From a virus, in IMG/VR virus record IMGVR_UViG_3300045988_154156: a stretch of DNA of 64,000 nt; one strand, given 5' to 3'. Each line of letters starts with the position of its first letter. Position 1 is the first letter of the stretch. Below, piece by piece: positions 9,442 through 13,464 of the stretch. Under the pieces are notes generated by a model, which saw only the letters and a list, made by a program, of their open reading frames with translations, was not told the DNA's origin and made no database searches. The position numbers and the translations under genes are program-made.

Positions 9442-10650
9442 ATGACTGAAAAAAAATTAAGTACCCTTGTAATTAACCAAGTAGAGAGTATTGATGTATA
9501 TAATTTACTTAAAACTCAAGATAAAATTAATCAAGATGAATTATATTTAATCTCGGGTGAACCAGATACTATAACCGGTATAAAAGGTAATAAAGAAACT
9601 ACTTACCGTACTGGCAATGTAAATCTTACTCCTGCTGATATTGGTGCTCTACCTGATGATACTGAAATTCCAGTAGTTCCTACTAATATTAGTGCATTTT
9701 ACAATGATGCTGGATATCTTACACAACATTAGAGTCTTACTGATTATCCTAAAAAAACTGAATTAGCAAATGTAGCGACAAGTGGCGATTATACTGATTT
9801 AATTAATACGCCAACTATCCCATCGACTGAAGGATTAGCGACAGAAACTTATGTATAGAATAAAATCGCCGAAGTAGTTAATTCTGCCCCTGGTACATTA
9901 GATACATTAAATGAATTGGCCCAAGCACTTGGTAATGACCCTAATTTTGCCACTACAATGGCAACTGAATTAGGTAAAAAGGCTAATACAGCAAACTTGG
10001 CAACTGTAGCCACAAGCGGCGATTATAACGATTTATCAAACAAACCTACTATTCCAAGTGTAGCAGGGTTAGCCAGTGAAGCATATGTAAATGAAAAGGT
10101 TGCGGCGATAAAGGTTCCATCATTAGACGGATATGCAAAAACCGCAGACTTAGCCACTGTTGCTACTTCTGGAAGCTACAATGATTTAGTAGATAAACCA
10201 ACTATTCCATCTGTTGGAAATGGTACATTAACTATTCAAAAGAATGGTACATCAGCTGGAACTTTTACAGCAAATGCTACTACTGATAAAACCATTAATA
10301 TTATAGTACCTACAAAAGTTAGTGAATTAACTGATGATGTTGTAAAGGGAAAATATTTACCTCTCACTGGTGGCACTATGACTGGTGATATTAATATTAA
10401 TAATAAAACAATTACTAATTTAAAAACTCCAACAGCTGATACAGAGGCCGCAAATAAAAAATATGTTGATGATAGTAAATCTTCGATAGTTGGTACATCT
10501 ACCACTTATCCAATTTACATTGGTTCATCTACTCCTGCATCAGGTACAGCGCCTTTACTTTGGATTGATACTACATCTTCAACAGGTGTTTTTAAATATC
10601 GTACTTCAACTACTGGAACTTGGACAGCTGTACCTGTGGCATATACTTAA
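9442..10650 (+). CDS. Tail-fibre protein with repeated (L)ATVATSG(D/S)YNDL(S/V)(N/D)KPTIPS modules and a conserved C-terminal tip (two in-frame TAGs).
   Basis: ORF-track pieces 9442-9732 and 9916-10650 share frame 1. The TAGs lie at 9730 and 9856. The YNDLxNKP repeat units are read directly from the translation. Confidence 0.7.
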
Positions 10651-10668
10651 TTAAAGGAGGTAAGTAAA

Positions 10669-10893
10669 ATGGCAAATAAAACATTTCAAGGTCGTATTGT
10701 TTAGAAACATGATACAGAAGCTAATTGGAAAAAAGCAACTAATTTTGTTCCCTTAAAGGGCGAAATTATTGTATATGATGATTTAAAGAAAATAAAAATA
10801 GGCGATGGAGTTACTAAAGTAGGAAATCTTGCTTTTATTAATGATAATGTTTCGTCTACCACAATCATCACTTGGTCTGATGATGGGACTTAA
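10669..10893 (+). CDS. Stand-alone HylP-like N-terminal anchor-domain protein (74 aa, one TAG).
   Basis: MANKTFQGRIV(TAG)KHDTEANWKKATNFVPLKGEIIVYDDLKKIKIGDGVTKVGNL is nearly identical to the 7539 protein. SD AAGGAGG upstream. Confidence 0.6.
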
Positions 10894-10909
10894 GAAAAAG
10901 GAGAGATAA

Positions 10910-11239
10910 ATTATGGGATTATATTTAGGAAAAGAAAAAATAAATAATTTATCAGTTGGATAGGCCGCTTTAGGTGTCACTGATATTTCTGATGAAACTA
11001 CTATTAATATTTCAGGAATTTTAAAAGGGGAAAATAATAAAATAGTTTCAGCTACACCTGGTGTTGATTATGTTGTTCCTGGTGATTCAACTGTAACAAG
11101 CGTAAATGGACGAACAGGTGCTGTCACGGTTCATGAAGTCCCCGCTGTCACTGCCTCTGATAATGGAAAATTCCTACGAGTGGTAAATGGGGCATGGGCG
11201 GCAGTAAGTATTGCAAATGCGAATGGAGGTAGCTTCTAA
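10910..11239 (+). CDS. Fibre-associated protein paralogous to 7763-8098 (one TAG).
   Basis: The N-terminus MGLYLGKEKINNLSVG(TAG) parallels MSLFLGENAIKKLSVIIG(TAG). SD AAAGGAGAG upstream. The frame ends at TAA 11237-11239. Confidence 0.5.
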
Positions 11240-11679
11240 TGGCTGAATATTTGACAAATACAACTGACCTGACAAAGGTTGCCGCAGCTATCCGTGTGAA
11301 AGGCGGCACATCCGCACCATTGGTCTATCCGGACGGATTTGTTACTGCAATCTAGTCAATTGATACAACGGGTGGACTGAAACCAGCAACAGTAACAATA
11401 ACTTCATCGGCAAACGACGATACAGGTAACGTGAATGGTCTATTTATATTTACTAATTCAGAAGGTCATTTAGATGAGTTAAATTATATGTATAGTGATA
11501 CTTTTACATATCCAATTACTATAGAAACAGTAATCGGTGGAATGGTAGTACTTCAAGCAACCGGTCCTCGTAGTTCTTATACGTATACGGGTTGTGAAGC
11601 TAGAGGATTTCAATATACTGTCTATATTTTAGTAACCAGTCCACAAGCATCTATAGATATATATAATCCAGGAGATTGA
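11239..11679 (+). CDS. Hypothetical structural protein (one TAG at 11353).
   Basis: ATG overlaps the previous stop (TAATG). Frame 1 is open to TGA 11677-11679. Confidence 0.45.
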
Positions 11680-12012
11680 TAAGCAAGCAAGGTTAAATCG
11701 ACAGACCTAATACTAACTTCATTAATTTATATAGATAAGAGGTTAAAAGAAATATAATAGCAAAAATATAATTGGATGGTATAATTTATGCAATCCAATT
11801 ATAGATATAATCTTTGACATGAAAGCCAACTGCTTATTTTGAAATGTATTATTTAATTGATTTAAAATAGTTTAATAATATTCAACAAACAAAAAAGTAT
11901 TTTTTACTTAATAATGATATGGAAAATGCCAAAATGTAAAAAATTTTTAAATCTTTCATGCAAAGGAAAATGTTTAATTTTTACAAAAAATTTAGAGGAG
12001 GTAAATAATTAA

Positions 12013-13008
12013 ATGGCTTTAACAAGCACTTCAAAACAAATATCCTCATTAAAAATAAATAAAGTACCATCTGCAGCAGTCTATAATAAGATGGTTGCAC
12101 AAAATTTAATCAATGATGATGAATTATATCTTGTTCAAGAAACTGAACATGTTATAAATAAATTTACATTTACTGCAATGGCAGGCTAGTCCACATTCAC
12201 TATCCCATTTGATTTTGACGATAGTAGTGCGCTTACTGTATATTATAACGGTGTAATGATGAAAGAAACTGATAACTATACAGTATCTGGTAAAGTAATT
12301 ACGCTCGCTGGATTTACAGCCGAAGCAGGCGATTATCTTACTGTAATGGGTATAGAGGGCGCCGCGGCAATTGATTTTGGCCAAGAGGCGGCAGATGCTA
12401 TTGCTCAAATGGATAACGCAAAATCAGAGGCTATTACTGCTATTAATAATATAAAATCACAAGCCTCTACAGAAATTAATACAGTAAAATCACAAGCCTC
12501 TACAGAAATTAATACAGTAAAATCACAAGCATCTACAGAAATTAATACAGTAAAATCAAATGCTATTACTGAAATAAATAATTTAGTAGCTACATTGCCT
12601 TCAGATACTTCCAGTATTATGTTTACAAATAAAACAAATACTATGACGGCTAATGGTAAAATTACTATGGATAGTTCATATACGCCAGGCGCGGATGGAG
12701 ATATTGCGACAAAAAAATATGTAGATAATTCTACACCAGCAACATTTACCGCTTCTAAGGCTGGTACAGTACCCGCTTCAGGAGGCGGAACCACGAAATA
12801 TCTACGAGCAGATGGTACTTGGACTACTATAGATAAAACACCAGTAATAGGTACAAATACTGATTATGCTATTTATATTGGGACAACAGCTCCTGCTTCA
12901 GGTACAACGCCACTTCTTTGGATTGATACTACATCTTCAACAGGTGTTTTTAAATATCGTACTTCAACTACTGGAACTTGGACAGCCGTACCTGTGGCAT
13001 ATACTTAA
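12013..13008 (+). CDS. Tail-fibre protein with a 3x tandem KSQASTEINTV repeat. Its C-terminal tip is identical to that of the 9442-10650 protein (one TAG at 12187).
   Basis: SD GAGGAGG then ATG 12013. ORF-track piece 12256-13008 is in the same frame. The last ~35 residues are identical to those of the 9442 gene. Confidence 0.7.
12454..12543. repeat. Three tandem copies of a 30-bp unit (AAATCACAAGCCTCTACAGAAATTAATACAGTA) inside the fibre gene.
   Basis: Seen directly in sequence. Confidence 0.9.
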
Positions 13009-13026
13009 TTAAAGGAGGTAAGTAAA

Positions 13027-13464
13027 ATGGCAAAGCCTAAACTTATAGAATAGATTGAAAATGCGGGCGGTGTATTTATAGCAACTAAAGATACTACCAC
13101 TTATCAAGAAATTAAAAATGCTTGGGATAATGGCAAAGACGTTATTGTAGTATTTGATTCAGATATTTTTATGCTAACTGAAATTCCTACTGGTAGTAAT
13201 ACTATAAAATTTTATTATAGAGATTTTCGTAATAGAGGCTATTCTACTACAAATACTAAATATCTAACATTAACTTCGGCTAATGTTTGGTCTTCATCAG
13301 CAATAGTTGAATAGCCAACATAGTTGGGTAAACCAATAACTGGAAATGGTGATACTCCAATTAGTGCATCAACAAGATATTTACGTCCAATATTAATATC
13401 TACCGCGGAACCAACAGCATCAGATGGTAATATAGGTGATATCTGGATACAATATGAAGATTAA
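13027..13464 (+). CDS. Fibre-associated protein (three TAGs) with the tip-like motif SDGNIGDIWIQYED.
   Basis: SD AAAGGAGG then ATG 13027. Frame 1 runs to TAA 13462-13464 with TAGs at 13051, 13312 and 13321. Confidence 0.45.

Follow-up and report, generated by a model that had tools for sequence, protein, structure and literature searches.

A near-exact repeat of a fibre tip and the following gene start points to tail-fibre module exchange in a gut phage

Read in the standard genetic code, the window (the whole 64,000-nucleotide stretch of IMG/VR record IMGVR_UViG_3300045988_154156 that was analysed) gave fragmented open reading frames. When TAG was taken as a sense codon, genes on the + strand were found to lie head to tail at 1–24.3 kb and 51–64 kb; the segment at 24.4–51 kb is without in-frame TAG. 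TAG aligns with Q in homologues, with a TCG (Ser) codon at one TAG site in the related contig L092 as a counter-example, and a suppressor tRNA is absent from the 64-kb window. The DNA derives from a TAG-recoded gut phage (genetic code 15 type) in which TAG is a sense codon of the late genes and, judging from these alignments, is probably read as Gln. Relatives of the phage are 157–197 kb in size, and it is probably virulent and very large. The recoding carries a warning for gene calling, as the standard code splits the fibre genes described below, and truncated pieces are all that public protein sets contain of them.

Two tail fibre genes, both on the + strand, are found at this locus. Fibre gene 1 (9442–10650) encodes a 402 aa protein, with TAG as sense at 9730 and 9856, and is composed of an N-terminal module (residues 2–37) shared with fibre 2, a repeat-rich body and a conserved C-terminal tip. 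Among PHROG families, it has matches to those of tail fibres and tail proteins, with E-values of 2e-21 to 1e-5. Fibre gene 2 (12013–13008; 331 aa, in-frame TAG at 12187) combines the same N-terminal module with a coiled-coil body, in which 33-bp tandem repeats occupy 12407–12604, an insert, GGTTKYLRADGTW, that is foldon-like, and the conserved tip. Its direct matches to tail-fibre families are weak, and it has both terminal modules in common with fibre 1. BLASTP aligned 36 N-terminal residues of the two fibres at 53% identity (E 2e-8); at the other end, its alignment covered the last 74 residues of fibre 1 and the last 108 of fibre 2 (E 1e-28). These matches contradict a preliminary description of this DNA, according to which the two genes are unrelated upstream of a common end; diverged homology also continues at the nucleotide level on the 5' side of that end, to approximately 10476 and 12834.

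Four smaller genes on the + strand accompany the fibres. Gene 10669–10893 encodes a stand-alone 74 aa protein made up solely of a domain assigned to the Mtd_N family (Pfam PF18454; 32.2 bits against a gathering cutoff of 26.3, E 1e-7); in relatives, a domain of Mtd_N type is fused to the N-terminus of fibre bodies. The same cassette includes a 108 aa gene (10913–11239), and in one related protein (P0045) the C-terminal part of a gene of this type is fused in frame to a body like that of fibre 2. A 146 aa gene (11239–11679) is the last ahead of a 333-bp intergenic gap. Its N-terminal 43–58 aa are common to many small gut phages, and when relatives of this gene were used as a contiguity probe, the matches were confined to the N-terminal module of many unrelated small phages. 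On the 3' side of fibre gene 2 lies a 145 aa gene (13027–13464) starting ATGGCAAAGCC (MAKPK), the C-terminus of which is a half-tip motif (GDIWIQYED).

The 3' ends of the two fibre genes lie in a near-exact direct repeat of 119 nt on the + strand, located at 10558–10676 (copy 1) and 12916–13034 (copy 2) with a constant offset of 2358 bp. The copies are identical at 118 of the 119 positions, in exact runs of 71 and 47 nt that are separated by a synonymous mismatch, T at 10629 versus C at 12987 (GCT/GCC). The T is private to copy 1, and the C is the state of all other strains. The repeat includes the last 30 codons and TAA stop of the fibre gene, an 18-nt spacer in which AAAGGAGGT is the Shine-Dalgarno sequence, and the next gene's first bases, ATGGCAAA. 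In copy 1 the stop codon is at 10648–10650, the Shine-Dalgarno sequence at 10653–10661, and the start belongs to gene 10669; in copy 2 the start occupies 13027–13034. The protein tail that is identical in both fibres has 32 residues, PLLWIDTTSSTGVFKYRTSTTGTWTAVPVAYT. The preliminary description had rightly recognised a duplication of the tip and junction, and the identical tail and the shared spacer and start bear it out. It had taken the duplication to be exact, of about 110 bp and about 35 residues, and its boundaries (10563–10677 and 12908–13030) were a few bases off and of unequal length.

A self-comparison of the window, which the preliminary description had proposed, disclosed this repeat as the longest in the 64 kb. 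A 68-nt core occurs twice in the window and in none of 100 dinucleotide-preserving shuffles. With the homology on its 5' side included, the two regions are 87% identical over 201 nt, the 'pre-tip' stretches at 10476–10557 and 12834–12915 being identical at 56 of 81 nt (69%) and 15 of 27 aa. A partial third copy of the junction was located at 7518–7751 (+ strand), comprising a ribosome-binding site and a paralogous 70 aa Mtd_N-only gene (7539–7751); 7518–7688 matches 10647–10818 at 84%, across the ribosome-binding site and the paralogous small gene.

The high nucleotide identity of the copies might reflect a functional nucleotide element, such as a structured RNA or regulatory site, a recombinase or invertase site, or the template/variable repeat pair of a diversity-generating retroelement (DGR). 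DGRs act on Mtd of Bordetella phage BPP-1, from which the Mtd_N domain of the neighbouring gene takes its name, and that system and the present locus both have a direct repeat of ~100–130 bp, one copy of which lies at a tail-fibre gene's 3' end. However, both copies here are coding and form the ends of intact genes, the 26 mismatches over 10476–10676 fall into nine types, copy 1 having A at 6 of the sites and copy 2 at 13, and the mismatch within the repeat is T/C; a DGR was rejected on this spectrum, in which differences are not confined to adenine. A Pfam scan of 19 window proteins revealed no reverse transcriptase. An invertible segment of the Gin/Cin/Min or shufflon kind was rejected, as the repeat is direct, with both copies on the + strand, and no long inverted partner was found. 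A structured RNA was likewise set aside, the predicted fold being weaker than that of shuffled sequences (z +1.74) and no Rfam family reaching the gathering threshold at 7–15 kb. Promoter and terminator counts at 7.2–14.7 kb were no higher than in shuffles. Relatives keep the protein of the tip but not its nucleotides. A functional nucleotide element of any of these kinds is extremely improbable.

The distribution of the tip was followed in other genomes. The tip allele (92 of 93 nt) was present in other gut metagenome assemblies behind other fibre bodies and at three types of junction, in which it is followed by AAGTAAAATGGCAAAT and an Mtd_N gene (junction a, contig L093), by AAGTAAAATGGCAAAACC and a gene like 13027 (junction b, L092 and L096), or by TTTTGAATGTCTAAACC and a gene like 13027 (junction c, L094). 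L093 keeps the order of tip and Mtd_N gene seen at 10669. The comparison with relatives put forward in the preliminary description as a check thus did reveal alternative modules, namely several bodies behind the same tip and three junction types. At the protein level, the tip stands at the extreme C-terminus of proteins of 98–571 aa with at least five architectures, and one module is therefore joined to different partners in natural relatives. It is a rare element, matched by 34 of 1.84 billion representative clusters. A protein-level tip pattern was found in two contigs of the IMG/VR and JGI metagenomes, where exact and degenerate DNA patterns of the tip gave 0 matches. The only match to the junction 21-mer in IMG/VR was a chance Shine-Dalgarno and start in an unrelated 46-kb contig, and the junction alone is not diagnostic. 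Among GenBank phage records, megablast of 9000–15000 returned a single 190-bp match and tblastn with a 447-aa fibre returned nothing, so that an annotated relative is absent from these records by both searches.

Selection on the protein does not explain the similarity of the two copies. Their tips have 29 of 31 codons identical, whereas relatives with 23–27 of 31 identical tip residues have 10–14 identical codons and 70–77% of nucleotides in common; the near-identity seen here thus stems from recent shared ancestry rather than from protein selection. Among strains, the tip nucleotides showed no extra conservation relative to their flanks, L093 being 95–100% identical across 10.2–11.2 kb.

The same contigs bear on the possibility of an assembly artefact, in which a repeat would have been collapsed or made chimeric, or co-occurring strains joined. 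Common assembler k-mers or reads exceed the repeat in length, related strains co-occur in gut samples, the related short contigs L092 and L094 end near the repeat, and no other contig spans both copies. Against this, junction a in L093 and junction b in L092 and L096 come from independent assemblies, the layout A-R-B-R-C (R, repeat) corresponds to a single path of the assembly graph, since reads must join R-B and B-R, and the single mismatch and clean breakpoint pattern fit real sequence. An artefact of this type is considered highly improbable.

The breakpoints were located by a three-way comparison of copy 2, copy 1 and the phage contig L021. Up to 12915 copy 2 follows L021 at 36 of 39 informative sites, and fibre 2 contains an L021-like patch on the + strand at 12610–12915, ~98–99% identical to L021 over 12610–12862. 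From 12927 to 13031 it follows copy 1 at all informative sites except 12987. Segment 12916–13034 is 99% identical to copy 1, L092, L093 and L094 and ~73% identical to L021, and beyond the stop codon copy 2 and L021 are unrelated. Adjacent segments of fibre gene 2 therefore have different nearest relatives, as in a mosaic gene. The switch to the copy-1 allele, and with it the left edge of copy 2, falls within 12916–12926, which are the codons of the motif LWID, and W, I and D of this motif are invariant or nearly so in the alignment of tips (alignment A1).

To define the right edge, gene 13027 homologues and Mtd_N genes of at least six relatives were compared at their starts and in the regions upstream. 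The edge coincides with the Shine-Dalgarno sequence and start codon and falls within the first three codons of gene 13027. ATGGCAAA is the start type of Mtd_N genes; homologues of gene 13027 start ATGTCTAAA, the beginning in relatives being ATGTCTAAACC (MSKPK). On the strength of these alignments the repeat has a recombination breakpoint at each edge, on the left in a conserved motif and on the right at a gene boundary. The G at 13035, which is found neither in the proposed donor nor in the relatives, counts against the explanation preferred here.

One way to produce such edges is gene conversion within this genome, in which a tract of ~119 bp would have been copied from the fibre 1/gene 10669 junction to the fibre 2/gene 13027 junction. 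It would account for two copies identical at 118 of 119 positions between flanks that are 69% identical (56/81 nt) or unrelated, and for ATGGCAAA, which is native to Mtd_N genes and not to gene 13027 homologues. Yet other samples (L092, L096) already contain junction b behind the same tip, so that no event in this genome is needed, and at the sole variable site copy 2 has the C of all other strains and not the private T of copy 1. Conversion in this genome is judged unlikely.

The data are very likely explained by tail-fibre module exchange through recombination at conserved motifs, which joined different bodies to a shared tip and junction. The fibre locus would consist of interchangeable modules, namely two alternative N-terminal adaptors (a domain of Mtd_N type or a 'KLSxLxINxV...DELYL' module), variable bodies, and a C-terminal tip of ~47 aa, after which come a strong Shine-Dalgarno sequence and the next gene's start. 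In the 119-bp repeat, two paralogous fibre genes now share one tip-junction allele. On the left, a homologous crossover at 12916–12926, in the most conserved codons (LWID), joins the shared tip to an L021-like patch that was imported, and on the right, the ribosome-binding site and start codon are the place of a short-homology join. With the Shine-Dalgarno sequence and start in common, the downstream gene would remain translated after exchange.

In the fibre-2-type genes of other strains the duplication extends over at least 225 bp. It may once have been longer here also and have been trimmed from the left by the L021-like import; this order of events, as opposed to an intragenomic conversion tract, is inferred from few short contigs. 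The reading of the repeat as a footprint of modular recombination among bodies with a putative role in receptor binding, offered in the preliminary description, gains support from the three-way breakpoint pattern and from the same tip on other bodies. The word 'recent' used there holds in a relative sense, as the tip-junction duplication is common to several strains and need not date from this genome.

The event is of a known kind with an ordinary footprint, and no new mechanism is involved. In fibre exchanges studied in 1996 and 1998, as summarised in PMC3157838, short highly conserved motifs flank variable segments. Crossovers inside or close to the motifs of highest conservation (here LWID), chimeric fibres and fibre genes duplicated in one genome are features of both those systems, as that summary presents them, and the present one. 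The motifs described there are His boxes and glycine-rich motifs; the proteins and motifs found here are unrelated to these, the conserved element being the extreme C-terminal tip plus an intergenic stretch that holds the ribosome-binding site and start codon, in an uncultivated TAG-recoded gut phage. De Paepe et al. 2014 (PMC3945230) described phage mosaicism by relaxed homologous recombination. Mosaic segments ~99% identical beside diverged or unrelated flanks, with crossovers at short or diverged homology, occur there and here; the exchange in that account is with prophages, whereas here it is seen between paralogues and strains. Tailspikes and other receptor-binding proteins, as described in PMC10408124, are modular, with an N-terminal anchor that is conserved and receptor-binding domains that are swapped at the C-terminus. 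A conserved attachment module reused combinatorially with variable parts is common to that scheme and to this clade, in which, by contrast, conservation extends to both ends (two alternative N-terminal adaptors, one C-terminal tip) and variation is in the middle.

At the level of a clade of TAG-recoded human-gut phages (~160–200 kb) that has been little studied, the present comparison gives the breakpoints of tail-fibre module exchange to the base pair. The LWID motif, a KKYVD motif, and the Shine-Dalgarno sequence with start codon are natural splice points that could guide the design of chimeric fibres and help to sort fibre variants in metagenomes. Repeated expression signals at gene boundaries were reportedly recognised in a 2010 study as homology for exchanges that leave the incoming gene expressed. 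The boundary found here differs in that it has only a Shine-Dalgarno sequence and start (~27 nt), fused to a coding tip, with no promoter or stem-loop.

A further proposal is that the tip, Shine-Dalgarno sequence, start and two adaptors act as a maintained linker permitting combinatorial assembly of fibres in this clade of TAG-recoded jumbo gut phages, the repeats driving frequent loss or re-duplication of a 2358-bp cassette. Although quite doubtful, this would predict mixed populations with or without fibre 2 by way of the cassette 10677–13034, and a tip to which the protein encoded by the adjoining downstream gene, whichever that is, would dock.

Short C-terminal modules for folding and trimerisation occur in phage fibres, among them the foldon of T4 fibritin and the intramolecular chaperone Peptidase_S74. 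Like these, the tip is a short, conserved, strictly C-terminal beta module carried by many different fibres, and fibre 2 contains a foldon-like Y-L-R-x-D-G-x-W motif, a resemblance that serves as a lead only. Unlike these, the tip has no significant sequence or fold match, and neither a Peptidase_S74 match nor a cleavage site was found. Searches for either module were negative: there was no Pfam match on the tip, a PDB profile search gave a best E of 0.069, and Foldseek against the PDB gave a best E of 1.9 with a model of low confidence. That AF2 model of the C-terminal 135 aa has a mean pLDDT of 52.7, with four short strands in the tip at pLDDT 75–84. The tip is probably a cap for folding or trimerisation at the C-terminus, or else a docking element, and not a determinant of specificity; it would represent one unit of a four-strand repeat of ~42 aa. 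In one related protein, P0057, the tip occurs three times in tandem.

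The fibre locus was found to carry a direct repeat of 119 nt (10558-10676 and 12916-13034, offset by 2358 bp throughout), the longest repeat within the window. The copies are identical at 118 positions, differing only at 10629 (T) vs 12987 (C), which leaves uninterrupted identity over 71 and 47 nt. A 68-nt core has two occurrences in the window and none in 100 dinucleotide-preserving shuffles. The duplication of a fibre tip, ribosome-binding site and start codon claimed in the preliminary description is therefore real and near-identical, but not exact as stated there, and its coordinates were off by a few bases. 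Weaker similarity continues upstream of both copies as far as approximately 10476/12834 (87% over 201 nt).

Under the standard code the fibre region splits into short ORFs; with TAG read as sense, head-to-tail genes on the + strand extend across 1-24.3 kb and 51-64 kb, and the genes at 24.4-51 kb have no TAG in frame. Nearly all late and structural genes use TAG in frame as a sense codon, and early and replication genes lack it. In alignments, homologues have Gln opposite TAG at several sites (AGqSTF vs AGQSTF, ST*PASG vs STQPASG, and GRIVqKHD vs a CAA codon in a paralogue), with Ser in one relative at one site. No suppressor tRNA was detected among the six tRNAs in the window (24334-26471; Thr, Leu, Gly, Lys, Ala and Cys). 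Clades of TAG-recoded gut phages that have several alternatively coded late modules and average ~150-210 kb in genome size have been described (bioRxiv 10.1101/2021.08.26.457843).

With TAG as sense, fibre 1 (9442-10650, 402 aa) is followed on the + strand by an Mtd_N-only gene (10669-10893, 74 aa; PF18454 above cutoff), a 108-aa gene (10913-11239), a 146-aa gene (11239-11679), a 333 bp gap (11680-12012), fibre 2 (12013-13008, 331 aa) and a 145-aa gene (13027-13464); a gene for a glycine-rich-domain protein lies at 13481-14518. Given these gene calls, the repeat comprises 30 codons and TAA, forming the conserved C-terminal tip, and then the junction, an 18-nt spacer with AAAGGAGGT followed by the start of the downstream gene, ATGGCAAA. 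A third, partial copy of the junction is present at 7518-7688 (84% identical to 10647-10818), where it spans the ribosome-binding site and an Mtd_N-only paralogue of 70 aa. The two stand-alone Mtd_N-type genes (7539-7751 and the 74-aa gene) encode the same ~59 residues that form the N-terminus of full-length fibres in relatives L002, L009 and L024 and in proteins P0003, P0023 and P0045. Just 5' of gene 7539 is a 64-nt near-perfect hairpin (7459-7522), and sequence of this type is also found ahead of the Mtd_N-type fibre genes of L021, L001, L009 and L024.

Upstream of the repeat the two fibres had been described as unrelated, which is refuted by BLASTP: the N-terminal 36 residues share 53% identity, and the C-terminal 74 residues of fibre 1 align with the C-terminal 108 of fibre 2 (E 1e-28), where fibre 2 has a 34-residue insert bearing a GGTTKYLRADGTW motif. 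Fibre 2 also contains a 33-bp tandem repeat (12407-12604) encoding KSQASTEINTV units, present in three copies in the window, two in P0007 and P0045 and one in P0001.

Both edges of the repeat could be located. Positions 12610-12862 are ~98-99% identical to a relative's contig, L021 (IMGVR_UViG_3300045988_132576); identity drops beyond 12862, and the sequences are unrelated past the stop codon. At informative sites, where copy 1 differs from L021, copy 2 is L021-like at 36 of 39 up to 12915 and agrees with copy 1 at all between 12927 and 13031 except 12987. The left crossover therefore falls within 12916-12926, the LWID codons, one of the best-conserved stretches of the tip. At the right edge, six relatives have homologues of gene 13027 that start with ATGTCTAAACC, preceded by TAATTAAAGGAGGTTTTTAA, and Mtd_N-type genes start with ATGGC(A/T)AATAA. 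Gene 13027 itself starts with ATGGCAAAGCC, and agreement with the relatives resumes at CCTAAAC, which places the right edge inside its first three codons.

When the C-terminal 135 aa of fibre 2 were searched against 5.8 billion proteins, only 41 matched; the contigs of these matches, together with a metagenome pattern scan, provided four short contigs assembled from other samples of the human gut. L092, L093 and L094 carry the same tip allele (92/93 nt), and for L096 the identity to copy 1 is 95% across 225 nt. In L093 the fibre consists of Mtd_N and the distal fibre-1 body, and junction (a), TAATTAAAGGAGGTAAGTAAAATGGCAAAT, leads to the 74-aa and 108-aa genes and then a homologue of 11239-11679. 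L092 and L096 combine a fibre-2-type body with a fibre-1-type pre-tip (in copy 1, the diverged homology at 10476-10557), followed by junction (b), ...AAGTAAAATGGCAAAACC, and a 13027-like gene, beyond which L096 encodes the glycine-rich protein. L094 has the same fibre type, with junction (c), TAATTAAAGGAGGTTTTTGAATGTCTAAACC, ahead of a 13027-like gene. Of the three junctions, (b) resembles a hybrid between (a) and (c); junction (a) has a (c)-type left half and an Mtd_N-type start. Relatives thus offer the alternative modules at these junctions that the preliminary description had looked to them for. Its reading of the repeat as a footprint of modular recombination is supported by the switch from L021-like to copy-1 sequence and by the tip standing on other bodies and junctions in other assemblies. 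Since both window junctions recur in other assemblies, and the A-R-B-R-C layout allows a single path through an assembly graph, an assembly artefact is unlikely.

At the variable site, C is found in copy 2 and all other strains, so the T of copy 1 is private. The tip-junction duplication is common to a sublineage and was probably once longer, since it extends over at least 225 bp in L096; an L021-like patch would then have overwritten its left part in the window. A diversity-generating retroelement was rejected, as mismatches between the copies are not adenine-specific, and so was an invertible segment, the repeats being direct; for an RNA element, the predicted fold was weaker than those of shuffles and Rfam gave no matches.

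No relative was found among GenBank phage records; in IMG/VR, many contigs of 157-197 kb encode homologues, often with 2-3 tip-bearing fibre genes per genome. Their tips match at 23-27 of 31 residues with DNA identity of only 70-77%, and only 10-14 same-residue codons are identical, vs 29 of 31 codons between the window copies. Because relatives keep the tip protein but not its DNA, and tip pairs within one relative's genome are diverged, protein-level selection is inadequate to explain the near-identity, which instead reflects recent common descent. Intragenomic gene conversion between the copies, as opposed to inheritance of a shared allele, is a minor alternative.

The last 59 residues matched only 34 clusters among 1.84 billion representative proteins. 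In close clusters (98-571 aa) the match lies at the extreme C-terminus; the tip is found in Mtd_N + body + tip and N-module + body + tip architectures, among others, as well as in short proteins of 121-149 aa. A distant homologue, P0057 (468 aa), has three tandem tip motifs in its C-terminal 130 residues, so the tip behaves as a single repeat unit of ~42 aa; proteins as long as 2221 aa contain weaker matches in multiple copies. AF2 placed four short strands in the tip (pLDDT 75-84) within a poor overall model, and neither the structural comparison nor the PDB sequence search gave a significant match. The tip's position and conservation suggest that it caps the C-terminus for folding or trimerisation, or that it serves in docking. 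The products of 7763-8098 (…GSNGDLYFDMG) and 13027-13464 (…GNIGDIWIQYED) end in 'half tips' akin to the first strands of the fibre tip (…PLLWID…).

Arbiol et al. (2010) reportedly described repeated expression signals as exchange points in T4-type phages. Tail-fibre exchanges at conserved motifs are classical in T-even phages (Tetart et al., as summarised in PMC3157838), and relaxed homologous recombination accounts for such mosaics (PMC3945230). As these processes are already described, the fibre-tip repeat is a new and well-resolved instance of an established process, mildly unusual in that the conserved linker is the extreme C-terminus plus the intergenic start signal and the middle of the protein varies.

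Elsewhere in the window, ~14 copies of a conserved ~60-nt intergenic element resembling a strong sigma-70-type promoter (TTGATTTTT ... TGATATAATAT) precede early genes (24237, 25135, 25339, 25555, 27630, 28800, 33610, 37150, 40920, 42670, 46645, 47655, 54585 and 63670), with no copy within the fibre locus. The N-terminal 43-58 residues of the 146-aa protein (11239-11410) are 71-91% identical to proteins on >170 IMG/VR contigs (~6-81 kb, mostly 20-50 kb), a module common to unrelated small gut phages. Among the products of the heavily TAG-recoded block downstream of the fibres (13481-24262) are an ALK/LTK-type glycine-rich-domain protein (E 5e-50), one whose N-terminus is putatively glycosyltransferase-like, one or more radical-SAM proteins (19405-20868 being a second candidate) and a fusion of an aldo-keto reductase with a 4Fe-4S domain. 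The early region (28927-50520) encodes an 828-aa vault-protein-like protein with an MVP shoulder domain, a DUF2828/DUF7788 protein, a NAMPT-type phosphoribosyltransferase, an SPFH/flotillin protein and an RNA ligase.
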